DNA from: Giardia intestinalis
Taxonomy: Eukaryota
DNA length: 64,000 nucleotides
Assembly: GCA_000002435.2 (NCBI GenBank)
Contig: CM018792.1
Direction: 5' to 3' (one strand)
The position numbers were made by a program, and so were the translations under genes. Of this stretch, positions 10,001 to 52,024 are shown in pieces. How positions within the stretch are numbered: the stretch's first letter is position 1; every line of letters starts with the position of its first letter. The notes below the pieces were generated by a model, which was not told where the DNA came from, made no database searches, and saw only the letters and a program-made list of their open reading frames with translations.

Positions 10001-12224
10001 TGAGTGGATCATATAATTCTATAGTTGTTGCACTAATGCTATCGTCCGAGTGAGTATAAAGTATACTGTACAAGGTCTCTGCAGGAAACGGAGTTTGCAC
10101 AGAGTCAGCCACATGCCGGAAGTGGAGTATTCCAGCAAGTGATGCCAATAGGGCAGAGACGCATTGTGCTCCAGTGGATGACGCAACCAATCCACCAATG
10201 TGGGATAGAAGAAGACGGTGAAGATCGATGAGAAAATCTACATGAGAGAGCATCCTAGAGACAGTAGTGGAGTAAGACGTAGAGGTGCAAATGACGTGGG
10301 AGAATAAGCTAAAGCCCAGGTGAGACTCTGAATTAGCGATGAGAAGAGGGATGGAACAGTCAGGTTCCTTGGTCTGCTGTGCCACTTGAGTCACACAACT
10401 GCAATGAAGTAATGCCTGGACGCTTGCAAATGATACTCTGCAGGTATCCTTCCGACCTGCTTCGAGAGATAAAAGACACAAAAGGCAGGGTAGTGCTGAA
10501 ATAGCTCTAACCAGTCCCTCTAAATTAAGATCTTCCTTCTTTTCAGAAGCATGCAGCGCACTTTCTACAAAAGCACGTAAAAGGTCTAGAATCTTTGAGT
10601 GAGGGTAGCGATTAGCAGAGTCCTCAACAACGGTTGGAAGACAATAATCATGGGATAGTAAGCGATAGAGAGATAGAGCTGTGGCTAGAACGGTTGATGG
10701 AGTTAAGGCATTAATGAATACTTCACTGGTGATGAGTCTCTTGATTGTGCAATTCCAAGATATAAGTGAAAAACCACAAATATATAGCATTGGAACGTTT
10801 GTCTGCTTTCCTACATTCTTAGAATCCTTAGCCGATAGAGAATAAAGAGCTTTGAAGAGGGAGAAGTTTTGCACCGTGCTGCCTATGCTTTCTGATGACT
10901 CAAAGGATATGCCAAACTCAGTTTCTACTGTATCTATTGCAGTGCTCAATGACACACTATCATTAGTCAATAACATATTATATTGTGCAGTAGTCAAAGC
11001 ATCGAGTAAGGGCGCCAAATTGAAATGTGGACCAGGCTCAAGATCTGCCTCGTACACAGGAAAGATGTGCGAGGTGATAGCCAGACAAGTGTGGGTGACA
11101 AGGCATCTGGCTTGCAGTAAGGGAAGAAAGGCTTTTTCTGGTATGCTATTGGTCGAGTAGTATCCAGAAGACTCTGCCTCACGTAACGTCAGCAGTGCTA
11201 TCAAAAGAGTTTGGGACGATTGGTGATACTTGAGCAAAGAAACTGCAATGCTCAGAAGCATGTTGAAAGAGTAAATATATGTCAGTAAAAAAAGAGTGAC
11301 AGACGAAGGAGCTAGAGGGTTGTCCGGATTCATCAAAATAGCAGATAGCAAAAATGTAAACAGACACTGTGGCGAGTACTGGCTCGGTGATAGTTCTTCA
11401 GAAGACATCTCAGTAAGTTGTGCAAATACGTCATCTGCGTTCTGAAACTCTGGACGACTATACTCAGAGAAATTAGTTGACGTGAAATTATGTATTCGTA
11501 CCTTGAGCGCAGTTACCAATGTAGAGTCTATATCAAAGTTATATTTGATGGCTTGCTCTAAAGTCAATGCAGTTAGCCATAAAATGGAATCAATACTTTC
11601 TACAGGTTCTCGTAGCATTCTCATTAACGATGTCGTGGATAAAAGGCAAAGGATGCAATCATCTAACAACGGCGTTAGCACTTTCTGTTTAATATTTTCT
11701 GGTAACTCCATCTGCAGGAGCCTCACAATGCGTTGTTCTGCTTCAATGCGCAAGCACACGGGAACGTTTTTTACAGAAGAGGCATTGTAAATAGACAAGA
11801 GGAAGCATAGAGCAGACCCTGTCGCTATCGCACCGAACGCCTTCTGCTTAACTCCCGCGTCGACCAAACGAAAAAGTGTGTTAACCAGTAGTGTTGTCTT
11901 GGCATCAGCCGCGTATCTCTGCTGCATGGTAATGGGCTCAACGAAGGCCTTCGCCAAGACTTTCTCCAGATGAAGAGTCACAGGCCCAGATTGTACAGTA
12001 TTAATGATTAGGTTCAGAATCGGAAGGTGTGCGGCGCGGAAATTCTCATCTAAAAGCTGAGTGATAAGAATACAGAGAGATTCCTGGACTCCCAAGCTCA
12101 ACTCAGAACACTCCTGTGGATAGGCAGACAAGGCATCCTCTATGTCTCTGATCATACTTCTCATGTCTTCGGTCTTGGTGAGCGTTTTGCAAGAGCTGAG
12201 GGAGGGAAGGATTATGTGGGGCAT
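7038..12224 (-). CDS. very large hypothetical protein (1728 aa), Leu/Ser-rich, possibly helical-repeat scaffold
   Basis: Uninterrupted 5.2-kb ORF with no enzymatic motif recognised. Its 5' end overlaps ORF 12142-14103 on the opposite strand, so the true start may be an internal Met (e.g. MRSMIRD at ~12164). Confidence 0.6.
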   Translation of the reverse strand: MPHIILPSLSSCKTLTKTEDMRSMIRDIEDALSAYPQECSELSLGVQESLCILITQLLDENFRAAHLPILNLIINTVQSGPVTLHLEKVLAKAFVEPITMQQRYAADAKTTLLVNTLFRLVDAGVKQKAFGAIATGSALCFLLSIYNASSVKNVPVCLRIEAEQRIVRLLQMELPENIKQKVLTPLLDDCILCLLSTTSLMRMLREPVESIDSILWLTALTLEQAIKYNFDIDSTLVTALKVRIHNFTSTNFSEYSRPEFQNADDVFAQLTEMSSEELSPSQYSPQCLFTFLLSAILMNPDNPLAPSSVTLFLLTYIYSFNMLLSIAVSLLKYHQSSQTLLIALLTLREAESSGYYSTNSIPEKAFLPLLQARCLVTHTCLAITSHIFPVYEADLEPGPHFNLAPLLDALTTAQYNMLLTNDSVSLSTAIDTVETEFGISFESSESIGSTVQNFSLFKALYSLSAKDSKNVGKQTNVPMLYICGFSLISWNCTIKRLITSEVFINALTPSTVLATALSLYRLLSHDYCLPTVVEDSANRYPHSKILDLLRAFVESALHASEKKEDLNLEGLVRAISALPCLLCLLSLEAGRKDTCRVSFASVQALLHCSCVTQVAQQTKEPDCSIPLLIANSESHLGFSLFSHVICTSTSYSTTVSRMLSHVDFLIDLHRLLLSHIGGLVASSTGAQCVSALLASLAGILHFRHVADSVQTPFPAETLYSILYTHSDDSISATTIELYDPLNETILLGQEISSKLNSNSLDCNSVLFSVIDERKRKSLQRSASSVEEFTSICIQTQARLLFRISHDSKWPEWRQRLLESAAMARVCESFNAQFYDGLIEINEKDLSLLFGYGLLLGALTLRSLDEFDMSSEIKEQLIDSLTTQSLFGRDDLLLLFPSSFRKLHSLLGLLASTETFLCTLSQLCLALTDDYKPSMTILPNATPGSDSTAANESRILLQLTLVSQIIMYIPILCQDKLPSQAVMKIHQNCVGLLASILSNYHALDRVSTFADKFLHAYFLILHRLFDFLDSKLVDAIEYLQVYESVLTCSGSQSDDCFKELWCIGLLRVVRLCSTPISVMRIKIVELLCKIVGSYLSVCTPVDILVLTRDVLFKSISILITCSPSTSRKATSSPAATIVSCHHIFFTSCMSVVSSAAYPLKIQVIRAFISLTHSLSVATGLSMVDDSIRLFCMGMKPDDVQLMHSDDGVTKATNLSFEELFSRIMQYPLMDSFFPEIFQKSLEHSPWLSLLSDLGDEDAMLSLTALLEDILSLLVIDGKASCQSSAVLLDLCSTVFSLLPRLTESIEIATRIIINAITLISMIISVEEGAEQSRPEIEKALNEIPVRLAKELVCKCNTQRQDSYLKTEACLSTLFSYALSNEAVFTSIFTCLYELLKQSSDQEGLCRLLSVQLSNAFVSSCSVGTFGPKTLSLCLSIILTLYISLLLTEAGNLAESLSIAAVSCAVLRLEAYPQLHLILTLAIYNNYPMFKDVIDDDVLYLIISRFLPYSNRYSADASSNNRAQSTSVVSSFELFAYGNIDSELISIISSFPQSKREEAALALEQLSVFYSYNKSNQEFLVTIDSTSLHQFLFNTALFTLSLYMESVSTLKKCISLIKNVLAHVEYNYLHFHAIPPSEKLYKHVSTLLQYIIEHTFPLSVASSILPHGSMPLLYYTSDRDSVFATTLMRPQLFALQTSFFHFFKVCRDLPLSRQIELIYLESLSAEMRVM

Positions 12225-29923: not shown

Positions 29924-30430
29924 TTATTATTCTCAAAGTTTGCAAGAGCTGTGAAAATTTGTGGTTCCACGCTTGCCACACGTTTCAGAAGGCGGTAGCA
30001 TCCAGCCATGCTGAGGTCGCAGGCGCGTTGGCCACGTACCTTACAGAAGAAGGCCTAGTTTTATTCTTGGACGTTCTCCCTGAAGGTACTTGGCTAATAT
30101 TTCTCTGCTGCACTTCGCGGTGAAACATTCAACTTTTACACTGCTCTGCCCACACTTTCTAGTGTGAGAGAGTACTTTTGTGTACTAAACTAATCCTATT
30201 AGCTGCACCCGGCCCGTCGTCTGAGCCCGGTGTAATCCCTTGTACCCAGTCCTACGGCTTCTACCTTCTGTCATCCACCTACGGAGGTCCTGCTCACCGG
30301 TGCCCATGGGTCCACTCCACACCAACGAGCACGCGAGCTATCAATGTATGTCATCGATTCAAAGTCCGGTATGTTACAAGTCCCGGTAGCGGTCTTTACT
30401 TCCTGGACACAGGCACACATCAATCGGCTA

Positions 30431-31660
30431 ATGTTCGAGAAAATTCTCCTCGGAATCGCTATCTTGCAGATGGCGCGGGCATCCACGTGTCAAGCACAAA
30501 GCGGCGGCGATCCTGGAACTTGTGAGAAATGTGATGCTCTTATTGGCCAAACGAAGTATTGTTCTAAGTGCAACGGAGCAAACTACGCCCCCGTGAACGG
30601 TGCTTGTGAGGACGTGGAGACGCAGGAGGATAAAAAAGCTCTTTGCAAAGCACACGCCAGCGGGGCTTGTACAACGTGCGGAGGCGCCTCCTTCATGTAC
30701 AAGGACGGCTGTTATTCAAAGGACACTGAACCAGGACAGAGCATGTGCACGCAAGCCTCTGAGGGAAAATGCACCGAGGCGGCCCCGGGGTACTTTGCTC
30801 CGGTGGGAGCGGCGAACACTGAACAATCTGTGGTCGCATGTGGCGATACAACTGGAGTAACAATAGCAGCTGGCGGAAACACATACAAGGGCATTGCTGA
30901 CTGCGCAGAGTGCGGCGCCCCTGACGCAACAGCCGGCGCTGAGGCCGGCAAGGTTGCAACGTGTACCAAGTGTGGAGTCAGTAAGTATCTCAAGGATAAT
31001 ACGTGCGTAGATAAAGCCCAGTGCGATTCTGGTAACACCAACAAGCTCGTTGCCGTTGACGATCCTGAGAATGGCAACAAATGTGTTTCTTGCAGCGATA
31101 ACCTCAATGGTGGCGTTGCCAATTGCGACACCTGTAGCTACGATGAGCAATCTAAGAAGATCAAGTGTACAAAATGCACCGATAACAACTACCTGAAAAC
31201 CACAAGCGAAGGCACGTCGTGCGTACAAAAAGACCAATGCAAAGACGGCTTCTTCCCCAAGGATGACAGCAGTGCAGGAAATAAATGCCTCCCTTGTAAT
31301 GACAGCACCGACGGAATTGCCAATTGCGCCACGTGTGCTCTGGTTAGTGGCCGATCAGGGGCTGCCCTCGTTACGTGCTCCGCCTGCATAGACGGTAAGA
31401 GACCCAACAAGGAAGGCGCAGCATGCTTTGAATGTAACATGGAAGGCTGTGTTTATTGTAGCGGTGCTAATAAGTGCGAGGAGTGCAGCGATGGGTTCAA
31501 ATTAGAGGGTGACAAGTGCGTGTCTTCTGGCAGTGCGGGAGTCAATAAGAGTGGGCTCAGCACAGGGGCCATCGCGGGGATCTCCGTGGCTGTGATCGCT
31601 GTCGTGGCTGGCCTTGTGGGCTTCCTCTGCTGGTGGTTTGTGTGTAGAGGAAAGGCGTGA
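30431..31660 (+). CDS. vsp: variant-specific surface protein (VSP)
   Basis: Signal-peptide-like N-terminus (MFEKILLGIAILQMARAS), many CXXC motifs, a GGCY motif, and a C-terminal TM helix followed by the invariant VSP tail '...GFLCWWFVCRGKA'. The start is taken at the signal-peptide Met (30431) rather than the upstream in-frame ATG at 30344. Confidence 0.9.
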   Translation: MFEKILLGIAILQMARASTCQAQSGGDPGTCEKCDALIGQTKYCSKCNGANYAPVNGACEDVETQEDKKALCKAHASGACTTCGGASFMYKDGCYSKDTEPGQSMCTQASEGKCTEAAPGYFAPVGAANTEQSVVACGDTTGVTIAAGGNTYKGIADCAECGAPDATAGAEAGKVATCTKCGVSKYLKDNTCVDKAQCDSGNTNKLVAVDDPENGNKCVSCSDNLNGGVANCDTCSYDEQSKKIKCTKCTDNNYLKTTSEGTSCVQKDQCKDGFFPKDDSSAGNKCLPCNDSTDGIANCATCALVSGRSGAALVTCSACIDGKRPNKEGAACFECNMEGCVYCSGANKCEECSDGFKLEGDKCVSSGSAGVNKSGLSTGAIAGISVAVIAVVAGLVGFLCWWFVCRGKA

Positions 31661-41184: not shown

Positions 41185-44100
41185 CTACGCTTTCCCCCGA
41201 CAAATAAACCACCAACAGAGGAAGCCGGCAAGGCCTCCGACGACGACCACCACGGCGACGGTGATACCTGCTATGGCGCCTGTGGAAAGGCCTCCCTTAT
41301 TGACGCTTCCACCGGCACCGCCGCTAGATACGCATGCGTTTGCGGCCTCGTCCAGTGCGTGCCCCTCCGCGCATGCTTTGCACTTGGCTGTGCCCGTGTC
41401 CCCTGTCGGCGCATCACAGGCCGCACAGTTTGCCACTCCTTTGTTGCTATCTGCACCAACGGAGTCTGAGCACAGAATGCACTCGCTGCCCGGTGTCTTA
41501 ACTGATGCCTTGTTTTGGAAAACACTTCCGTCAGCCTTGCAAGCGGCACATACCCCACCGACTGCATTGGTGCATATAAGTTCTCCGGGAGACGCCCCTG
41601 TTTTATAACAGCCGCCCATGAAGAGGAAGTACCCGTCGCCGCCACATTTACCACACGAGGTGTCCGTGCCCTCTATTGCGGCTCCGCCCGATTGCGTGCA
41701 CTTTGCCGTCTTTGTGACGAGATCGTCCCCGAACGCCGTGCAGACACCGTCGATGGGTGCGAAGCCCTGCTTGCATTGTGTACACGCTTGGGCTGATCCT
41801 ATAGTTACCAGTTTGTCGACCTCGCATTGGAAAGACGGAGGGGCCCTGCATGCGTTTGCGGCCTCGTCCAGTGCGTGCCCCTCCGCGCATGCTTTGCACT
41901 TGGCTGTGCCCGTGTCCCCTGTCGGCGCATCACAGGCCGCACAGTTTGCCACTCCTTTGTTGCTATCTGCACCAACGGAGTCTGAGCACAGAATGCACTC
42001 GCTGCCCGGTGTCTTAACTGATGCCTTGTTTTGGAAAACACTTCCGTCAGCCTTGCAAGCGGCACATACCCCACCGACTGCATTGGTGCATATAAGTTCT
42101 CCGGGAGACGCCCCTGTTTTATAACAGCCGCCCATGAAGAGGAAGTACCCGTCGCCGCCACATTTACCACACGAGGTGTCCGTGCCCTCTATTGCGGCTC
42201 CGCCCGATTGCGTGCACTTTGCCGTCTTTGTGACGAGATCGTCCCCGAACGCCGTGCAGACACCGTCGATGGGTGCGAAGCCCTGCTTGCATTGTGTACA
42301 CGCTTGGGCTGATCCTATAGTTACCAGTTTGTCGACCTCGCATTGGAAAGACGGAGGGGCCCTGCATGCGTTTGCGGCCTCGTCCAGTGCGTGCCCCTCC
42401 GCGCATGCTTTGCACTTGGCTGTGCCCGTGTCCCCTGTCGGCGCATCACAGGCCGCACAGTTTGCCACTCCTTTGTTGCTATCTGCACCAACGGAGTCTG
42501 AGCACAGAATGCACTCGCTGCCCGGTGTCTTAACTGATGCCTTGTTTTGGAAAACACTTCCGTCAGCCTTGCAAGCGGCACATACCCCACCGACTGCATT
42601 GGTGCATATAAGTTCTCCGGGAGACGCCCCTGTTTTATAACAGCCGCCCATGAAGAGGAAGTACCCGTCGCCGCCACATTTACCACACGAGGTGTCCGTG
42701 CCCTCTATTGCGGCTCCGCCCGATTGCGTGCACTTTGCCGTCTTTGTGACGAGATCGTCCCCGAACGCCGTGCAGACACCGTCGATGGGTGCGAAGCCCT
42801 GCTTGCATTGTGTACACGCTTGGGCTGATCCTATAGTTACCAGTTTGTCGACCTCGCATTGGAAAGACGGAGGGGCCCTGCATGCGTTTGCGGCCTCGTC
42901 CAGTGCGTGCCCCTCCGCGCATGCTTTGCACTTGGCTGTGCCCGTGTCCCCTGTCGGCGCATCACAGGCCGCACAGTTTGCCACTCCTTTGTTGCTATCT
43001 GCACCAACGGAGTCTGAGCACAGAATGCACTCGCTGCCCGGTGTCTTAACTGATGCCTTGTTTTGGAAAACACTTCCGTCAGCCTTGCAAGCGGCACATA
43101 CCCCACCGACTGCATTGGTGCATATAAGTTCTCCGGGAGACGCCCCTGTTTTATAACAGCCGCCCATGAAGAGGAAGTACCCGTCGCCGCCACATTTACC
43201 ACACGAGGTGTCCGTGCCCTCTATTGCGGCTCCGCCCGATTGCGTGCACTTTGCCGTCTTTGTGACGAGATCGTCCCCGAACGCCGTGCAGACACCGTCG
43301 ATGGGTGCGAAGCCCTGCTTGCATTGTGTACACGCTTGGGCTGATCCTATAGTTACCAGTTTGTCGACCTCGCATTGGAAAGACGGAGGGGCCCTGCATG
43401 CGTTTGCGGCCTCGTCCAGTGCGTGCCCCTCCGCGCATGCTTTGCACTTGGCTGTGCCCGTGTCCCCTGTCGGCGCATCACAGGCCGCACAGTTTGCCAC
43501 TCCTTTGTTGCTATCTGCACCAACGGAGTCTGAGCACAGAATGCACTCGCTGCCCGGTGTCTTAACTGATGCCTTGTTTTGGAAAACACTTCCGTCAGCC
43601 TTGCAAGCGGCACATACCCCACCGACTGCATTGGTGCATATAAGTTCTCCGGGAGACGCCCCTGTTTTATAACAGCCGCCCATGAAGAGGAAGTACCCGT
43701 CGCCGCCACATTTACCACACGAGGTGTCCGTGCCCTCTATTGCGGCTCCGCCCGATTGCGTGCACTTTGCCGTCTTTGTGACGAGATCGTCCCCGAACGC
43801 CGTGCAGACACCGTCGATGGGTGCGAAGCCCTGCTTGCATTGTGTACACGCTTGGGCTGATCCTATAGTTACCAGTTTGTCGACCTCGCATTGGAAAGAC
43901 GGAGGGGCCCTGCATGCGTTTGCGGCCTCGTCCAGTGCGTGCCCCTCCGCGCATGCTTTGCACTTGGCTGTGCCCGTGTCCCCTGTCGGCGCATCACAGG
44001 CCGCACAGTTTGCCACTCCTTTGTTGCTATCTGCACCAACGGAGTCTGAGCACAGAATGCACTCGCTGCCCGGTGTCTTAACTGATGCCTTGTTTTGGAA

Positions 44101-45627
44101 AACACTTCCGTCAGCCTTGCAAGCGGCACATACCCCACCGACTGCATTGGTGCATATAAGTTCTCCGGGAGACGCCCCTGTTTTATAACAGCCGCCCATG
44201 AAGAGGAAGTACCCGTCGCCGCCACATTTACCACACGAGGTGTCCGTGCCCTCTATTGCGGCTCCGCCCGATTGCGTGCACTTTGCCGTCTTTGTGACGA
44301 GATCGTCCCCGAACGCCGTGCAGACACCGTCGATGGGTGCGAAGCCCTGCTTGCATTGTGTACACGCTTGGGCTGATCCTATAGTTACCAGTTTGTCGAC
44401 CTCGCATTGGAAAGACGGAGGGGCCCTGCATGCGTTTGCGGCCTCGTCCAGTGCGTGCCCCTCCGCGCATGCTTTGCACTTGGCTGTGCCCGTGTCCCCT
44501 GTCGGCGCATCACAGGCCGCACAGTTTGCCACTCCTTTGTTGCTATCTGCACCAACGGAGTCTGAGCACAGAATGCACTCGCTGCCCGGTGTCTTAACTG
44601 ATGCCTTGTTTTGGAAAACACTTCCGTCAGCCTTGCAAGCGGCACATACCCCACCGACTGCATTGGTGCATATAAGTTCTCCGGGAGACGCCCCTGTTTT
44701 ATAACAGCCGCCCATGAAGAGGAAGTACCCGTCGCCGCCACATTTACCACACGAGGTGTCCGTGCCCTCTATTGCGGCTCCGCCCGATTGCGTGCACTTT
44801 GCCGTCTTTGTGACGAGATCGTCCCCGAACGCCGTGCAGACACCGTCGATGGGTGCGAAGCCCTGCTTGCATTGTGTACACGCTTGGGCTGATCCTATAG
44901 TTACCAGTTTGTCGACCTCGCATTGGAAAGACGGAGGGGCCCTGCATGCGTTTGCGGCCTCGTCCAGTGCGTGCCCCTCCGCGCATGCTTTGCACTTGGC
45001 TGTGCCCGTGTCCCCTGTCGGCGCATCACAGGCCGCACAGTTTGCCACTCCTTTGTTGCTATCTGCACCAACGGAGTCTGAGCACAGAATGCACTCGCTG
45101 CCCGGTGTCTTAACTGATGCCTTGTTTTGGAAAACACTTCCGTCAGCCTTGCAAGCGGCACATACCCCACCGACTGCATTGGTGCATATAAGTTCTCCGG
45201 GAGACGCCCCTGTTTTATAACAGCCGCCCATGAAGAGGAAGTACCCGTCGCCGCCACATTTACCACACGAGGTGTCCGTGCCCTCTATTGCGGCTCCGCC
45301 CGATTGCGTGCACTTTGCCGTCTTTGTGACGAGATCGTCCCCGAACGCCGTGCAGACACCGTCGATGGGTGCGAAGCCCTGCTTGCATTGTGTACACGCT
45401 TGGGCTGATCCTATAGTTACCAGTTTGTCGACCTCGCATTGGAAAGACGGAGGGGCCCTGCATGCGTTTGCGGCCTCGTCCAGTGCGTGCCCCTCCGCGC
45501 ATTCCATGGGACTGCTTATTCCCTCTATTGTTCCGCACTGATTGCCAGTTGCGCGACTGTTTCTAGTGCCTCCAGCGCAGTTTGCAGCAAGCACATTCAG
45601 CACGAATAGAAGCTCTACTACCAACAT
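41185..45627 (-). CDS. vsp: variant-specific surface protein (VSP) containing ~8 identical 172-aa tandem repeats (1480 aa)
   Basis: Signal peptide MLVVELLFVLNVLAANCAGG, CXXC-rich ectodomain with GGCY motifs, C-terminal TM helix and the tail 'GFLCWWFICRGKA'. The internal unit 'CAEGHALDEAANACRAPPSFQCEVDK...TGDTGTAKCKA' is repeated 8 times. Confidence 0.9.
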   Translation of the reverse strand: MLVVELLFVLNVLAANCAGGTRNSRATGNQCGTIEGISSPMECAEGHALDEAANACRAPPSFQCEVDKLVTIGSAQACTQCKQGFAPIDGVCTAFGDDLVTKTAKCTQSGGAAIEGTDTSCGKCGGDGYFLFMGGCYKTGASPGELICTNAVGGVCAACKADGSVFQNKASVKTPGSECILCSDSVGADSNKGVANCAACDAPTGDTGTAKCKACAEGHALDEAANACRAPPSFQCEVDKLVTIGSAQACTQCKQGFAPIDGVCTAFGDDLVTKTAKCTQSGGAAIEGTDTSCGKCGGDGYFLFMGGCYKTGASPGELICTNAVGGVCAACKADGSVFQNKASVKTPGSECILCSDSVGADSNKGVANCAACDAPTGDTGTAKCKACAEGHALDEAANACRAPPSFQCEVDKLVTIGSAQACTQCKQGFAPIDGVCTAFGDDLVTKTAKCTQSGGAAIEGTDTSCGKCGGDGYFLFMGGCYKTGASPGELICTNAVGGVCAACKADGSVFQNKASVKTPGSECILCSDSVGADSNKGVANCAACDAPTGDTGTAKCKACAEGHALDEAANACRAPPSFQCEVDKLVTIGSAQACTQCKQGFAPIDGVCTAFGDDLVTKTAKCTQSGGAAIEGTDTSCGKCGGDGYFLFMGGCYKTGASPGELICTNAVGGVCAACKADGSVFQNKASVKTPGSECILCSDSVGADSNKGVANCAACDAPTGDTGTAKCKACAEGHALDEAANACRAPPSFQCEVDKLVTIGSAQACTQCKQGFAPIDGVCTAFGDDLVTKTAKCTQSGGAAIEGTDTSCGKCGGDGYFLFMGGCYKTGASPGELICTNAVGGVCAACKADGSVFQNKASVKTPGSECILCSDSVGADSNKGVANCAACDAPTGDTGTAKCKACAEGHALDEAANACRAPPSFQCEVDKLVTIGSAQACTQCKQGFAPIDGVCTAFGDDLVTKTAKCTQSGGAAIEGTDTSCGKCGGDGYFLFMGGCYKTGASPGELICTNAVGGVCAACKADGSVFQNKASVKTPGSECILCSDSVGADSNKGVANCAACDAPTGDTGTAKCKACAEGHALDEAANACRAPPSFQCEVDKLVTIGSAQACTQCKQGFAPIDGVCTAFGDDLVTKTAKCTQSGGAAIEGTDTSCGKCGGDGYFLFMGGCYKTGASPGELICTNAVGGVCAACKADGSVFQNKASVKTPGSECILCSDSVGADSNKGVANCAACDAPTGDTGTAKCKACAEGHALDEAANACRAPPSFQCEVDKLVTIGSAQACTQCKQGFAPIDGVCTAFGDDLVTKTAKCTQSGGAAIEGTDTSCGKCGGDGYFLFMGGCYKTGASPGELICTNAVGGVCAACKADGSVFQNKASVKTPGSECILCSDSVGADSNKGVANCAACDAPTGDTGTAKCKACAEGHALDEAANACVSSGGAGGSVNKGGLSTGAIAGITVAVVVVVGGLAGFLCWWFICRGKA
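41300..45500. repeat. tandem array of ~8 apparently identical 516-bp units inside the VSP coding region
   Basis: The six-frame track shows identical ORFs recurring every 516 nt (e.g. 41618, 42134 ... 45230 and 41515, 42031 ... 45127). The flanks diverge at ~41330 and ~45497. The period is a multiple of 3, so the frame is maintained. Confidence 0.9.
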
Positions 45628-45907
45628 TGTAGTATACCTTGGGCTTTACACCGACTCCTGGCGATAGCAGTGCCTGGGCGGGCCCCTTCCTCCAGGGAGA
45701 GTTCTAGTTCGAGGGCGACCGCCAGGGAGGAGCCCGGTGCTGTGTTACTGGCCCTTGTTCGATGCTTGGCCAGTCTGAAGGCTGGGGCGGGTCGCTGATA
45801 ATATATAGTGCGACGTATCGTCCCACTGACGCATCTAAGCCTGTGCGCTCCTCAATTGCTCCGCGGGCATCCCAGCCCAAGCAGCCTCTGAGGCCCACGG
45901 ATGATGC

Positions 45908-45985
45908 GGTCGGCTAACTCAGTCGGTAGAGCAACACTGGAGTCTGAAGTCTGAGATCAGATGCCCTCGATCTCGGGGGAAGAAC
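45908..45985 (+). pseudogene. degenerate tRNA-like fragment related to the tRNA-Ile at 48692
   Basis: The first 25 nt (GGTCGGCTAACTCAGTCGGTAGAGC) match the acceptor/D-arm of the downstream tRNA-Ile at 23 of 25 positions. Then comes a duplicated AGTCTGA heptamer and a 6-bp perfect hairpin (gagatc...gatctc). No canonical anticodon or T arm folds. Confidence 0.3.
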
Positions 45986-48486
45986 TCCTATGCCCGCCTC
46001 CCCTAGAAGCTGCCGCTCCTCGCGGTGCCCCCTAGGACTTCCTTCTCTCTGGCCCGTCGGGGCCAACCATCGTCTGGCATCTAGTGAGCACCCGCTGTCC
46101 CGGGCCTTGCGTCGGTCACAGGACCTGGCCTCAGAGCAGTTGACTCTGGCGCTCCGTGACGAAGATGGGATACGCCACGACCCCGGGTGCCTACCCCGTT
46201 CCTCGGGGTGCCTCTTCGTCTTCTCATGAAGCGAGTCATCAGTCCCGAGTATGATCGGAGGGTGCGCTCCCCGTGCGCCTCTGTCTTGGAGTCATAGTAC
46301 GCGTTCGTGGATGCCGGCGGAGTACTCCTATACGTTGGCGTCGGGGAGGAGGCTCGGCCCTCTGCTCACGGATCGCAGGGCGCTCTTGCAGGTGCTCCGT
46401 CACCCAGCACGAGATCATGTCGACGCTCACCCTGTGCAGTGTGTCTGGCTCAGTGATGTGTGGGCTGGTCCATCCTCACACCGCACACTTGGGGTGATGC
46501 TTCGGTCCACCGAGGCGTCGTCCAAAGCATCAGAAGCGATCAGGACCGGTTCGCTGTCAGGCCGTCTCTCTCTACAACCGGCACCCGTCTACTCGATGGT
46601 GTCAAAGGATTACGCAGCTGCTGTGGTAAGCGCCCAGCAAGTGGCCCAGGCCGCCACCACTCTCCGGTGCAGGCAGGATTAGTCCACTTCTGCCAGCCAG
46701 ACACTCCAAGGATCCCGACTTGCCTGTCGAGGGATTCACATGGGTCACGTGTGGGTCCGTCTCGACCAGCGTGGTGAGTGATTAGTGCCATCACTAGCTT
46801 CAAGCTCTCCGTTGCCTTGGAAGCTCCTTAAGACCGGCCAGGAAGAAGGCCTCCTGCTCCTCAGTGCTCCCACACCCAGTGTTGACCGTCGAGCCAATCG
46901 CTTCGCCGGGCCTATCGCTTCTGTGACTGCCCCGTCGCGTCGCTGTCGTCGGCACGGGCAGTGAGCGGGGCATCTCCTCAGCTCCTGGCGAGCAGGTTCT
47001 GTCCCGCGCAGCACAGAAGCATGCGCAGGGTCCCGAGGGACCGAGTCCAGGGGTGCAGCGTGTCGCAGCCGGAGGAAGGCCTCGACGCAGCTCCTTGGAA
47101 CTGTGTTGTGGAGCGAATCATGATCGTCCGTTCATCGTGCTTGTCCTGCCCTGTCTCTGGGGAAGGGCTAGACGGAACCGTACGGAGCACGCATTCCATC
47201 CTATGGATCGCGCCGAGGATCTCGCTGAAGGCCTGCACCCGGATGGGCTCGCCAGCGCAGGCCCGGAGACTTCGAGCCCCGCGGACTGGCCGTCCGTGCT
47301 CTCCGATGGCTGAGGGGGCTCTTGTCTCTCAGGGGCCAGGCCGTCCTGATCCGGCCCTCTGGATAGCAAGGTGCTGGTCGTCGGTGGCGCTGTTAGGGGG
47401 CAGCTCCCCCTCGAGGCGAGGCTTCAGGCCGGGCAGTGGGGTGGTGAATGCCGCTCCTCCGCTTCCCCGCTGTGTGGGGAGGTACCCTCCCCTGAGCACG
47501 TTCGCACGAAGGGCGCTGAAGAGGACGTCCTTCTCCATCCCCGCTGCCCCACTCAGTAGCACCCTGCATCCGGTGTCCGTGCTGCATACGTCTGGACGGC
47601 CTCGCCGCGGAGGGTCTTCGCGCAGGACAGGCACGTGCTCTTCCGCTCCTACTACTTTGGCGTTCGCCCGGTGCCGCTCCAGCGCAGAGTGCTCCTCTCC
47701 GTCAGGTTCCTAAGGTCCTCGTTCTCGCTGTGATACCTGATCTATCCCTCTTGAGGGGTGGGGTTCACGGTGCACTGGTGCGTGTCCGGGGCGACGTCTC
47801 CCTTGTAGAGTTCTGCAGGTTCCACGACCCTCTGGGGATAGCCAGCGACTGGGACCCCTGTTTGAGGCTAGGGCTGGCCTGGCTCCACCGGGCCGCGAAC
47901 AACTCAAGGGCGCTCTGGTGTCGCTGGTCTCTCAACCGCACACTCGACCTGTCTTAGCAGATAACGGGTCGTGCCTGGGCACCTCCGGGAAGCGCTCCGG
48001 TCCGATGCTTTCTGTCCGGGGCATCACGGCAGGCAACGGTGAGGGCCCACGAGGGACACCGCACTCGGGCGCCGGGGCATGGTGCATGGGCTGGCACCGT
48101 CTGTCTGTCGCAAGGCTGCAGAAGGAGCTCAGACGGGGAGGGTTCCCGAGACGTGCTGCTCAGGGCCCTCCGGTGATGTGAAGGAGGCGTGGCAGCTCCT
48201 CGTGCTGTGGATCGCATAGGAGGTCCCCGATGGTGCAGTCTCTTAGTGAACTCCAGCATCCTTGAGCCAGTTCGTGTAGTCAGCGAGTGACCCCATTGGG
48301 ACCATTGAGAGCCTGCCACCATGCGCCGCTCTCCATGACAGGGAGGTGCGGGCCCCCTGCTCACTCTATCGGCTGCTCTCTAGACTCTCTTCTTCGGGCC
48401 TCTACAAGCCCTCCTCGGCGGCTTCCCGTCTGGGCCTCTCCCAAAGGCTCGGACTCTCAGACCTCGAGGGTGCGCAGAGGGCTGGC

Positions 48487-48738
48487 GGGTGCTGGGCCGG
48501 CGGGGGGTCCGGCGAGGGGCCGCGGTCGGTTAGCTCAGTCGGTAGAGCGTCAGTCTGATAAGCTGAAGGCGGGTGCTGGGCCGGCGGGGGGTCCGGCGAG
48601 GGGCCGCGGTCGGTTAGCTCAGTCGGTAGAGCGTCAGTCTGATAAGCTGAAGGCGGGTGCTGGGCCGGCGGGGGGTCCGGCGAGGGGCCGCGGTCGGTTA
48701 GCTCAGTCGGTAGAGCGTCAGTCTGATAAGCTGAAGGT
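48487..48738 (+). repeat. three tandem 84-bp units, each containing 41 nt of GC-rich leader plus the 5' 43 nt (acceptor-D-anticodon arm) of tRNA-Ile
   Basis: The unit 'gggtgctgggccggcggggggtccggcgaggggccgc|ggtcggttagctcagtcggtagagcgtcagtctgataagctgaagg' recurs at 48487, 48571 and 48655. Only the third copy continues into the variable loop, T arm and acceptor 3' strand. Confidence 0.8.
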
Positions 48739-48764
48739 CGGGGGTTCGAGCCCCCCACCGACCA
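48692..48764 (+). tRNA. tRNA-Ile (anticodon GAU)
   Basis: Manual cloverleaf: 7-bp acceptor GGTCGGT/ACCGACC; D arm GCTC-AGTCGGTA-GAGC; anticodon arm TCAGT-CTGATAA-GCTGA (U33, anticodon GAT, A37); 5-nt variable loop; T arm GGGGG-TTCGAGC-CCCCC; discriminator A. No encoded CCA. Closely resembles eukaryotic tRNA-Ile genes. Confidence 0.8.
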
Positions 48765-48778
48765 CTTTGTCTTCCATA

Positions 48779-48970
48779 ATGGGTCCTCTGTGGTGGGTCC
48801 TCTGTGGTGGGTCCTCTGTGGTGGGTCCTCTGTGGTGGGTCCTCTGTGGTGGGTCCTCTGTGGTGGGTCCTCTGTGGTGGGTCCTCTGTGGTGGGTCCTC
48901 TGTGGTGGGTCCTCTGTGGTGGGTCCTCTGTGGTGGGTCCTCTGTGGTGGGTCCTCTGTGGTGGGTCCTC
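48779..48970. repeat. 14-bp minisatellite (ggtcctctgtggtg)n, ~13.5 copies, starting 15 nt after the tRNA
   Basis: Perfect 14-nt periodicity across 48781-48967. It produces the artefactual periodic ORF 'GPLWWVLCGGSSVV'n in the frame track. Confidence 0.85.
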
Positions 48971-49495
48971 GTGAGCCTGGACGGGCAGTCGTGCCTAGGG
49001 GAGTGCACCGGGGACAAAGTGGTGGGAGAGGTGTCCGGCGGCGTGCGGAGGTGCTGGTGCGAGCGGGGCCTCCTGCCGGCACTGGACAGATCCGAGTGTG
49101 TGCCCGCAGCTGAGTGTCCCCCTGATATATACTCATGACGTTTCCACAATTCTTCATAGAGTTGTGAATATCTGATATCTTTTAAAAGTAGTCACAAATT
49201 GTATGCATTTGCTATGACGATCCTTGCACAGATTGTTATTAAATATTGCTAAAACTAACCGTGTGTTCAATCTTCAAAATAAAAGATTTAGATCTAAATA
49301 ACAACATACATTTGGACACAGCCTTCTGAGAGCGCCAACTACTTTCACGTTTTAATCTTGTCCTCATCTCTACTTCTAATTCTAGACAAGTTCCATTTCG
49401 CTGATTGCCTAACTTTTAGTAAACCAAGGCGCTGCAAATTATCACTATATCAAACTTCTAATGTCTTAGAGTTCCCTTTACTTAACTGTAGATGC

Positions 49496-49939
49496 TTAAT
49501 TAATATTTGCAAGCTCAAACTGATCGTGCGCTGTTGACGCCTTGACGATGGCTTTGGTAGATGCTTCGCAAAAGCGCCCATTCATTATTATTTCATCTAA
49601 GACATGATATGCCTTAAGGTAGTTGAAAATAAGGTCAAGCTCGCTTACACCTCCAAAGTATCTATCGAGACACGTAGCAAAGAAGTGGATCATTTCATGT
49701 GCTAGTAGCTTGTTGTCTGAATTCTCAACTGCAAAGACAATCGTAAGGTCTGCATACTGCCTTAAGATAAGAGAACCTCTATCCCAGTCGATAATCCCAT
49801 TAGAAAGCGAGGCGTGGAGCTTCACAGTCCGTATAGCAAGCTGAATTGCGGCGGCTTGCTCAGCTGCCAGTAGGACCTTATACCACTTGAGCAGCCGGAT
49901 CTCGCTCTGTCCGTTGAATATGAGAACAAATTCAATCAT
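49496..49939 (-). CDS. clathrin adaptor (AP) complex sigma subunit
   Basis: 147-aa protein 'MIEFVLIFNGQSEIRLLKWY...LIFNYLKAYHVLDEIIMNG...ASTKAI' matching the sigma-adaptin consensus (MI.F.L..N.QGK.RL.KWY...ELD.IFNF.K.Y.ILDE...GGE..ETSK). Confidence 0.85.
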   Translation of the reverse strand: MIEFVLIFNGQSEIRLLKWYKVLLAAEQAAAIQLAIRTVKLHASLSNGIIDWDRGSLILRQYADLTIVFAVENSDNKLLAHEMIHFFATCLDRYFGGVSELDLIFNYLKAYHVLDEIIMNGRFCEASTKAIVKASTAHDQFELANIN

Positions 49940-49957: not shown

Positions 49958-52024
49958 TTGTTTATGAGCAAGGGATCTGAGAAGGGTGACACGCCAGCGA
50001 TAGCCATTGCTAAAATGCGTGAAGAAAGCTGTGATCCGACACTATTTGGAGTTTATGACGGGTATAGGGATATCATAGTGATCAAGTATGATCCAGAGAG
50101 TGAGACTCTCGTTAACTTCACAATAGATGAGCTACGCACCATTAGAATGCCTCAGTACAGAAGTATCCTTCTCAGGTATGAAAACATACCCATCACTAAT
50201 GTCCACTTTGGAACTGTGGTACGAAAATGCAGTGACCTATCTCTTGATGACTTGACGGCCTCTCCTGTTACTCCAGAGCTCTGCACGAAAATATTCATTG
50301 ATCCAGAAACTAAAGCCCTTCCACCAATTCTAATTTATATCCCAACATGGGCTACGCAATCAGACACACCCGACTCTTCTAGTTCACTTCCGATTAATGC
50401 CCACATTATTTCTGCATTGTTAGAGAACTCTCCAATTGTCGCTATCTGCAAATCGTTTACTAATATAGAACAGTTTAACATTCAAACCAATTTCAAGAAA
50501 TCTGTTCCGCAGATCTCTGATACACCTGGAGCAAGGCCAGATCCTGCCTCTGGAGAACAGATCTATAAGCTGATGAATTATCAATCACATGTTGGATACT
50601 TTGCTACATGGATAGTGGAGCGTTGCCCTGCAGTTAAAAAGCACCGCTTAACAGAAAAGGCGGCCGAGGTAAAAGATCTTTTGAATAAGATATATAAGAA
50701 ATGGAACACAAAGCAGCTAGCCTTAAACACCAGAAAATACGATGACTACGTCTATGATGAACTTTACAAGCTCCTCTGGACAAGCAGGAAGCGCCCTCAA
50801 CCTTTAAAGATAGCTGCCCCTAACTTGGCACACCGTCAACTTCGGCGTGTAGTTGAGATAGTATCTGCGGTGGAGGAAGCCGCTGGAAGCACCAATCTAC
50901 GAGGCATTACTGAAGCAAACTTACGAGACAATCTTTATCAGTTTTCCTTTAGGCCGTCGTCCATACTAGATATTGGGTGTGCAGATGGCTATATACTAGA
51001 GGCGTTGGGGAAGGCATATGGTTTGAAGAAAGAACAAATTGTTGGGATGGACATAAGACCCCCGCAGTCACAGGAGATTGTATTTAATGAGCGCAGTGCT
51101 TTGGACTCCTCTGCATTTGAACCAGAGTCGTTTGATCTTATAACTATATCCATGACGCTCCATCATATAGCACGTTGGAAGACAGTCTTACGAAACGCTC
51201 GGTCTTGGATTAAGCCCAATGGCTACGTTTTTGTTCGTGAACATGATGCAACGTCAAACGCCGACAGGCTTCTGCTGGATATTCATGACGGCGCCTTCAA
51301 CGGCTCTATTTGGGAAAACCCTGAGCAAACTTGGGAGAGCTTCGTAGCTTTTGCAAGGAGCTACTTCTTTGGGTATGCGACCCTGTGCTTGAGCGCTGCG
51401 ATTGCTGGCCTCAAGCTATCCTGTGCCCGATGGGATATCGCAGATATGGTTAATTGGAAAACACATGGAATGATCTACACAGCTGTGTTTATAACAACCA
51501 ATGAGCCAGTGATCCCACCCGTCTCTGGCACACCCCAGGAAATCGAGAAGCACGCATTAGCATGTATTGATATCATCTTCAATGTGCTTGATCCCATTAC
51601 ACATCCTGATGCACTCAAGCCAGGGACATTCACTGTAATTGCAGAGGAGACATCTTTTATTGCACCTCAGCTGCCCCCACTGATTACTACCATAGCTCCT
51701 AATTTAATATATGTTCCCTTTGAACCTTCATCAGCTTTGTCGGGACAACCCTTTATTGTCATTTTGGAGGCATCCACAGCAAAGCACTATGAGGAAGTCT
51801 TCCAAGGCGACACAGACAAACTACCAAAGTATGTTGCCATTTACAGGACCAGAGAGAAGATGGACGCTCATAAGGGCGCATCGCTAGTAATAGAAAAGGT
51901 AATTGGAAGTGCTGGATACAAATTAGTTAGCAACGGACTCACGTGTCACCCAGACTTTGCTGTAGCATGCTTTTCAAGGACCTCTGAAGCTGTATCTGAC
52001 AAGATAAAGGTTCTAAAATATTAG
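49958..52024 (+). CDS. class I SAM-dependent methyltransferase domain protein (688 aa)
   Basis: Motif I 'ILDIGCADGYILEAL', an acidic motif II region 'VGMDIRPP', and 'FDLITISMTLHHI' (post II/III) in the central region. Long N- and C-terminal regions of unknown function. Confidence 0.6.
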   Translation: MFMSKGSEKGDTPAIAIAKMREESCDPTLFGVYDGYRDIIVIKYDPESETLVNFTIDELRTIRMPQYRSILLRYENIPITNVHFGTVVRKCSDLSLDDLTASPVTPELCTKIFIDPETKALPPILIYIPTWATQSDTPDSSSSLPINAHIISALLENSPIVAICKSFTNIEQFNIQTNFKKSVPQISDTPGARPDPASGEQIYKLMNYQSHVGYFATWIVERCPAVKKHRLTEKAAEVKDLLNKIYKKWNTKQLALNTRKYDDYVYDELYKLLWTSRKRPQPLKIAAPNLAHRQLRRVVEIVSAVEEAAGSTNLRGITEANLRDNLYQFSFRPSSILDIGCADGYILEALGKAYGLKKEQIVGMDIRPPQSQEIVFNERSALDSSAFEPESFDLITISMTLHHIARWKTVLRNARSWIKPNGYVFVREHDATSNADRLLLDIHDGAFNGSIWENPEQTWESFVAFARSYFFGYATLCLSAAIAGLKLSCARWDIADMVNWKTHGMIYTAVFITTNEPVIPPVSGTPQEIEKHALACIDIIFNVLDPITHPDALKPGTFTVIAEETSFIAPQLPPLITTIAPNLIYVPFEPSSALSGQPFIVILEASTAKHYEEVFQGDTDKLPKYVAIYRTREKMDAHKGASLVIEKVIGSAGYKLVSNGLTCHPDFAVACFSRTSEAVSDKIKVLKY

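Follow-up and report, generated by a model that had tools for sequence, protein, structure and literature searches.

The locus considered here raises the question of why some 3.5 kb of DNA rich in guanine and cytosine (GC), with no evident gene, should lie directly upstream of a VSP gene in an otherwise gene-dense part of the Giardia intestinalis genome. The DNA analysed (the window) is a stretch of 64,000 nt from contig CM018792.1 (assembly GCA_000002435.2), and the island in question extends from 45628 to 49140, between the gene vsp122 and a spacer rich in adenine and thymine (AT). An earlier note, made from the sequence alone, had described the island as an isolated compositional anomaly and had proposed that it was a structured RNA or RNA polymerase III (Pol III) locus, a fragment related to a ribosomal DNA (rDNA) spacer or a subtelomere, or a recombination hotspot associated with the VSP gene. 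We think it likely that the island represents the long non-coding DNA 5' of vsp122, on chromosome 4 of G. intestinalis WB, and that it consists mostly of a decayed dispersed repeat.

In particular, we propose that the island is built as follows. A core of about 2.3 kb would derive from a GC-rich non-coding repeat, here in decayed form, of which further copies lie elsewhere in assemblage A genomes. This core would have been joined to an intact tRNA-Ile(GAU) gene, the 5' half and leader of which multiplied to give a short, isolate-variable array, and a minisatellite and a remnant of a gene for a cysteine-rich protein would then complete the patchwork. The stretch would evolve without coding constraint, its tandem arrays changing by slippage or unequal exchange, and ectopic recombination or gene conversion with other copies of the family would also alter the core. 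Any role would be confined to the tRNA gene and, speculatively, to the chromatin-level control of vsp122 or its recombination.

The region upstream of vsp122

Between 45640 and 49140 (3501 nt) the GC content is 64.2%, compared with 45.8±1.5% (maximum 50.1%) in the background, which was taken as all remaining 3.5-kb segments of the 64-kb stretch outside the GC-rich block. The gap free of open reading frames (ORFs) in which the island sits measures 3868 nt and is both the largest such gap in the window and the sole non-coding gap with a GC content above 52%. At the right edge, GC in 50-nt segments falls from 0.70 to 0.28 across 49050-49140; the drop to AT-rich DNA that the earlier note had placed at about 49140 is therefore sharp, occurring within 90 nt. 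The left edge is a mere step up from vsp122, which itself has a GC content of 58%, and the island and the gene together form an 8-kb GC-rich block (41.0-49.1 kb). Thus, the island is real, but on its left side it is not isolated. Moreover, the GC content of 65-80% that had been ascribed to the island was an overstatement, since values range from 0.59 to 0.72 in 300-nt segments and from 0.54 to 0.77 in 100-nt segments, with 1% of the latter reaching 75%.

The VSP gene (41185-45627, minus strand) was identified as vsp122, or GL50803_113357, because it carries both the 516-bp repeat that is unique to vsp122 and the CAATGTT initiator, as judged against the text, the table and supplementary row 122 of the published catalogue, where vsp122 is listed on chromosome 4 with the initiator CAATGTT (PMC2996952). 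Translation of the gene gives a product of 1480 aa that ends in CRGKA, and the gene contains 8.6 perfect copies of the 516-bp (172-aa) repeat (41332-45502). The start context on the minus strand, at 45627, reads TACAATGTTGG, the vsp initiator element being CAATGTT. Note that the 2010 catalogue gives two to three copies of the 516-bp repeat (PMC2996952). In the assembly of DH, an assemblage A2 isolate (WB belongs to assemblage A1), vsp122 has one 516-bp unit and a product of 276 aa. The gap in repeat count (8.6 versus 2-3 versus 1) reflects either true copy-number variation or collapse of the repeat in older assemblies.

DNA of this kind has been described around vsp genes. 'An extended noncoding region upstream' is a typical vsp feature, certain vsps have near-identical upstream non-coding regions, and the members of inverted vsp pairs stand 2-4 kb apart, with non-coding DNA between them (Adam et al. 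2010, PMC2996952). Like these regions, the island adjoins the 5' end of a vsp gene with a PyAatgTT initiator, is kilobases long and non-coding, and has sequence in common with other loci, as reported for some vsps. Unlike the members of the inverted pairs, vsp122 lies outside any inverted identical pair, and its upstream region adds a tRNA gene and tandem arrays. On a larger scale, GC-rich islands in Giardia chromosomes, located at synteny breaks, arise from VSP, reverse transcriptase (RT) and HCMP genes (Jerlström-Hultqvist et al. 2010, PMC3091692), which contradicts the statement in the earlier note that rDNA is the only comparably GC-rich DNA in Giardia, and the surroundings of VSP genes are gene-poor and show more allelic variation (Xu et al. 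2020, PMC7000408). The DNA upstream of vsp122 resembles these islands in its high GC content, its atypical nucleotide signature and its poverty in genes, as well as in being adjacent to a VSP gene and at a break in synteny with G. muris where assemblies stop. It differs from them in that the GC-rich DNA beyond vsp122 is non-coding, whereas the published islands are described by their genes. We conclude that the island belongs with the GC-rich, gene-poor DNA already known from the vicinity of VSP genes and is an ordinary feature. The value of this finding is mainly corrective, in that what had appeared to be a compositional anomaly, and possibly an RNA locus or an rDNA relic, becomes known VSP-associated DNA; current understanding is unchanged.

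The earlier call that the island is non-coding holds by several measures. The period-3 signal-to-noise ratio is 0.4-2.0 in the island compared with ratios of 12, 14.5 and 57 for three genuine genes, and the six frames contain 21-35 stop codons per 1177 codons, near the ~30 expected from composition. When the WB and DH islands were aligned, 18 of the 20 indels were not multiples of three and the substitutions were spread evenly over the three codon phases. Six-frame translations of the island had no match in Pfam save one sub-threshold zinc-finger hit. Concatenated island ORFs gave 0 matches in an index of 5.8 billion proteins, a search in which the selection of candidates by shared words was swamped and in which the paralogue ORFs described below occupy other frames and extents. 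An ORF of 250 aa on the plus strand (46961-47713) is a chance pseudo-ORF, with no Pfam match and no period-3 signal; its frame stays open solely because the WB copy has TCA where DH, a paralogous locus (L014, see below) and most paralogues have TGA. The island yields no protein product and is a patchwork of parts.

We considered whether a protein-coding gene (for a VSP, an HCMP or another cysteine-rich protein) once filled the slot and has since decayed. The final 168 nt of the island (48971-49138, plus strand) are the tail of a Cys-rich ORF (…CLGEC…CWCERG…ECVPAAEC…) whose stop codon falls exactly at the GC/AT boundary, and assemblage B shows GC-rich DNA with an ORF that begins at the equivalent position. 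The tail has no Pfam match and in DH, where it is 89% identical, it carries a 1-nt frameshift; the tail may be what remains of the 3' end of a cysteine-rich gene, and is now a pseudogene. However, a decayed gene would account at most for these 168 nt. There is no VSP or other Pfam signal and no period-3 signal in the island, a tblastn search with all of the proteins encoded in the window, including the VSP, gave nothing below E=0.05 in the island and hence no relic, and the ORF of assemblage B has neither a homologue in the protein collection nor similarity to the island. We therefore see only a slender chance that the slot was once filled by such a gene.

The high GC content alone speaks for a fragment of rDNA, an rDNA spacer or a subtelomere. 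Even in this respect the likeness is partial, as the GC content of Giardia rDNA is roughly 75% and that of the island 64%. An Rfam scan of the island at E<=10, as the earlier note had suggested, returned tRNA as the sole family, with no small-subunit (SSU), large-subunit (LSU) or 5.8S rRNA. Of 12 universal rRNA motifs sought with up to three mismatches, ten were unmatched and two 14-mers each had one chance-level match with three mismatches, in agreement with the earlier failure to find such motifs, and a search of the island for TAGGG telomere repeats found none. Moreover, the island is chromosome-internal and is flanked by conserved housekeeping genes in WB as well as in DH. The negative Rfam, motif and telomere-repeat scans speak against the rDNA or subtelomere origin that had been proposed, and we give it practically no credence.

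The dispersed repeat in the core

A HMMER search of 1.84 billion representative proteins with the 249-aa pseudo-ORF as query gave 12 matches at 71-87% identity, the same 55 residues being covered by seven different representatives. The named matches are 'hypothetical proteins' of Giardia, and the remainder are ORFs from ENA and Logan assemblies. The paralogues in WB are GL50803_0031391 (located on a 4.02-Mb contig, a different chromosome), GL50803_26631 and GL50803_101368, to which can be added a UniParc entry, UPI000018CAA4, that is probably from WB; those in DH are DHA2_152867 and DHA2_150218. None of the paralogue ORFs carries a Pfam domain. In tblastn searches these ORFs are spread over 46262-48520 in shifting frames, which sets the minimum extent of the copy in the island.

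At the level of DNA, the first 764 nt of the paralogous locus L014 (ENA k141_29986) correspond to 46322-47101 at 79% identity and are followed by a 175-nt insertion; similarity stops at 47165, and beyond the repeat lie AT-rich DNA and unrelated genes (for a glycosyltransferase and others). When the core was compared by nhmmer with all of the retrieved loci, L014 was the sole match, and an 18-mer scan of JGI metagenomes gave chance bacterial matches only. Exact look-ups with the island ORF at 46251-46682, with UPI000018CAA4 and with GL50803_0031391 matched none of the indexed contigs. The copy represented by GL50803_0031391 has an internal deletion of ~310 nt, and the similarity of UPI000018CAA4 begins at about 46622-46640, out of AT-rich sequence. 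In general, the copies differ through deletions, truncations and 10-20% substitutions. These sequence comparisons place the core in a family of decayed, non-coding, GC-rich repeats that has four or more members in WB. No copy seen departs from the high GC content, which argues that this composition belongs to the family and was not generated at this site. The membership of the core in a dispersed GC-rich repeat family was missed by the earlier note and is the chief new finding here.

At about 46622-46640 the end of the GL50803_0031391 deletion coincides with the point where UPI000018CAA4, an independent paralogue, begins to match, and this region is also the least conserved between WB and DH (75%). 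The coincident break hints that the family may be modular, with a module boundary at this position.

A more specific form of the interpretation given above is that the family corresponds to GilD (Genie 2), a dead non-long-terminal-repeat retrotransposon, or to the long untranslated portion of that element; on this view a retroelement would have inserted upstream of vsp122 and decayed to form the island. Copies of GilD are reportedly described with deletions, frameshifts and substitutions, and the copies found here show frameshifts in addition to internal deletions, truncations and 10-20% substitutions. Both are dispersed, GC-rich and dead, and RT remnants are known upstream of VSPs. In WB, four of the seven head-to-head VSP pairs hold an RT remnant in their 3.2-6.3 kb spacer (PMC7000408), RT genes are among those that form GC-rich islands in Giardia (PMC3091692), and the 3' untranslated regions of Gil elements are, according to a secondary source, unusually long (PMC5537684). 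However, no RVT or endonuclease signal was found in the six frames of the island (E<=10) or in ten paralogue ORFs (E<=1). A terminal inverted repeat, which is a feature of Genie 2, is lacking in the island, where inverted-repeat searches gave nothing convincing, and neither poly(A) nor a target-site duplication was seen. The primer sequences of Genie 1 are also absent from the window, which excludes Genie 1 only. We regard GilD as a doubtful candidate for the family, albeit one that merits real weight.

Divergence between isolates and possible exchange among copies

To compare the island between isolates we used the DH locus AHGT01000015.1. The six flanking genes are 99.5% identical between WB and DH (0.5% differing) when all sites are counted, and at four-fold sites 1.4% differ (14/999). 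In the island, by comparison, identity over 45628-48483 is 89.2% (2733 aligned sites plus 216 gap columns). This divergence is unevenly distributed. The proximal upstream flank of vsp122 (45628-46039), which is GC-rich and non-coding, is 97.8% identical, and the right edge (47871-48483) is 95.1% identical; between them lies a hyperdivergent core (46040-47870) with 84-88% identity and indels of 1 to 73 nt. The differences are mostly transitions (227:69), and strong-to-weak and weak-to-strong differences are balanced (136:123). When L014 was used as an outgroup over about 840 sites, 46 and 62 derived changes were assigned to the two syntenic copies.

Exchange among copies of the repeat would explain why the syntenic copies of A1 and A2 differ roughly ten times more than neutral sites in the neighbouring genes. 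Consistent with such exchange, the amino acids encoded by the WB copy, read in the same frame, are 84-91% identical to those of the WB and DH paralogues and 80% identical to those of the syntenic copy in DH. That the resemblance of the WB copy to paralogues is at least as great as its resemblance to the DH counterpart points to transfer of sequence among copies, and we infer that members of the family may exchange sequence by ectopic gene conversion or recombination, atop unconstrained drift.

The same data could in principle reflect a single-locus hypermutable region or recombination hotspot near the VSP gene, in which the local mutation rate is raised and the high GC content is kept by GC-biased gene conversion. 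Divergence about ten-fold above that of four-fold sites would fit such a region, as would the instability of the tandem arrays, the occurrence of derived changes on both the WB branch and the DH branch, and the balance of 136 versus 123 changes, as would be anticipated for a composition at equilibrium near 64% GC. However, the sequence is demonstrably multi-copy, with all of the copies seen being GC-rich, and the WB copy is nearer to paralogues than to its positional orthologue. Moreover, the block of divergence has sharp boundaries at about 46040 and 47870, which fit replaced tracts better than a diffuse increase in rate. We consider a purely local explanation of this sort rather improbable. 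Of the earlier suggestion of a recombination hotspot, what stands is that the instability is tied to the VSP gene, that the arrays differ between WB and DH, and that the divergence is mosaic; the instability is of a recombination or slippage type.

Several observations weigh against the view that the island is a vsp upstream region composed mostly of an exchanging repeat. First, paralogue DNA comes from one locus only (L014), the contig of which begins inside the repeat. Second, the sharing of sequence is seen with other loci, which may or may not be vsp upstream regions. Third, a locally high mutation rate would yield similar divergence numbers, and the clustering of derived changes that gene conversion would produce is weak and marginal (runs test z=-1.94, p=0.03). 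Fourth, the second VSP gene in the window (30344-31660; 438 aa, ending in CRGKA), which matches vsp121, or GL50803_5812 (PMC2996952 table), has an upstream gap of only 432 nt with 50% GC and so lacks such an island; a long GC-rich upstream region is thus neither universal nor obligatory for vsp genes. Finally, the first run of four T residues downstream of the tRNA-Ile gene is at 49180, 415 nt 3' of the gene and past the minisatellite.

If copies of the repeat found in the vsp122 upstream region do exchange sequence, this would help to account for two features reported around VSPs, namely raised 'allelic' variation and breaks in assemblies. The copies would also offer tracts of homology for rearrangements that move vsp genes.

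The tRNA gene, the tandem arrays and the neighbouring DNA

All four of the components that the earlier note had recognized in the island, namely a tRNA gene, partial duplications derived from it, a minisatellite and a degenerate tRNA-like fragment, are present. The tRNA gene (48692-48765, plus strand) encodes an intact tRNA-Ile with the anticodon GAU and was detected by both ARAGORN and Rfam. Its cloverleaf is complete, with a score of 74.7 bits against RF00005 at 48692-48764 compared with a gathering threshold of 29, and it is intact in both WB and DH; on these grounds the tRNA is probably functional. Eukaryotic tRNA-Ile usually has the anticodon AAU, as opposed to the GAU of the island gene.

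Immediately upstream, and overlapping the gene, is a tandem array of partial tRNA copies (48484-48742, plus strand) made up of 3.1 copies of an 84-nt unit, with 99-100% identity between units. Each unit consists of 38 nt of leader or upstream sequence and nucleotides 1-46 of the tRNA, and the final unit continues into the complete tRNA-Ile. The two upstream partial copies score 27.8 bits each, below the Rfam threshold. The array of DH is different, consisting of 3.6 copies of a 103-nt unit and 1.9 copies of a 72-nt unit of partial tRNA. Inside each 84-nt unit of WB there is a 12-nt micro-repeat (CCGGCGGGGGGT / CCGGCGAGGGGC), for example at 48497-48519, and in DH units of 72, 84 and 103 nt (11030-11476 of the retrieved locus) vary by loss or gain around this micro-repeat, which suggests slippage. 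A canonical G-quadruplex motif begins at 48479. Because the array varies between isolates, this repetition of the tRNA's own 5' half could serve as a simple typing marker; it is otherwise a small Pol III curiosity.

The minisatellite (48780-48970, plus strand) comprises 13.6 perfect copies of a 14-bp unit (TGGGTCCTCTGTGG) in WB and about one copy in DH, and is a recent expansion in WB. It is flanked by an imperfect inverted repeat of 19 nt (48753-48771 and 49013-49031; 84% complementary) that probably arose by chance. At the other end of the island, a 27-nt degenerate fragment of a tRNA 5' half, resembling a D-arm and A-box (45906-45932, plus strand), is 92.6% identical to the 5' part of tRNA-Ile. 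This fragment gave no tRNA match at E<=10 in a covariance-model scan and is not a complete tRNA; it is kept in DH with one substitution.

With one bona fide tRNA gene and partial copies that bear an A-box, the island could be taken for a multi-gene Pol III locus or a structured non-coding RNA (RNase P/MRP, or a cluster of small nuclear or small nucleolar RNAs). However, apart from tRNA no Rfam family matched at E<=10, and the core accumulates frequent indels between A1 and A2. Moreover, fold z-scores for 118 segments averaged -0.28 (standard deviation 1.15), near shuffled controls, with strong outliers only on the minisatellite and the tRNA array. The part of the earlier suggestion that stands is thus the tRNA with its derived partial copies. 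The fold scores and the lack of an Rfam family speak against a structured RNA beyond the tRNA, and we judge such a locus very improbable.

We also considered whether the repeat might be a previously unclassified mobile or duplicative element of Giardia that moves together with tRNA genes or targets them. The copy in the window is bracketed by the tRNA-like 5'-half fragment (45906) on one side and by tRNA-Ile with its amplified 5' halves (48484-48765) on the other. In this respect it resembles retroelements associated with tRNA genes, such as TRE of Dictyostelium and Ty3 of yeast, in that the repeat adjoins a tRNA gene and a second tRNA-like fragment lies on the opposite side. Unlike these elements, the island has no element-encoded proteins, no defined termini and no target-site duplications. 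Within 10 kb of the L014 copy no tRNA was found, which leaves a tRNA-linked element with a small probability. Were the idea correct, Giardia, which is regarded as having only three retrotransposon families, would gain a tRNA-linked repeat that seeds recombination substrates next to vsp genes. In the paralogue GL50803_101368, the end of the ORF (…GGGLARGTNCSAGR) back-translates to a sequence resembling a tRNA D-arm (…TGCTCAGCTGGTAGA), so that a tRNA, or a sequence resembling one, may border this copy too.

Comparison with other Giardia genomes indicates that the island site is variable, bearing on a synteny check that the earlier note had proposed. In G. muris (CM016925.1, 8820-9998) the adaptor-sigma gene that lies to the right of the island adjoins an E2F/DP-like gene across a 30-nt gap; the syntenic site has neither island nor tRNA, and the gene order on the left differs, so that the island marks a synteny breakpoint. 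In assemblage B (AHHH01000084.1) GC-rich DNA (57-68%) lies beyond the AT-rich spacer and is unrelated in sequence to the island. The first 240 nt of this assemblage B locus hold the 81-codon ORF referred to above, which has a start resembling a signal or transmembrane segment (MRPVIRLYLKTVRAHLCLYVCIIVLPTVVAAAVALFF…). Apart from DH, every G. intestinalis assembly retrieved, whether of assemblage A, of assemblage B or of two further divergent lineages, ends within 0.1-0.9 kb of the right edge, and short-read assemblies of many isolates stop around 49040-49290. Together, the assembly breaks and the differences in assemblage B and G. muris argue that the slot is variable and hard to assemble across the species.

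On the right, the island ends at an AT-rich spacer (49139-49495; 26-42% GC), and a WB-type short-read contig is 100% identical to the window from 49040 on. Past the spacer is the gene for the sigma subunit of an AP complex (the adaptor-sigma gene; 49496-49939, minus strand), followed by a methyltransferase gene (49964-52024) that is identical to XP_001705602.1/KAE8304122.1 of WB, which is encoded on a 2.76-Mb contig.

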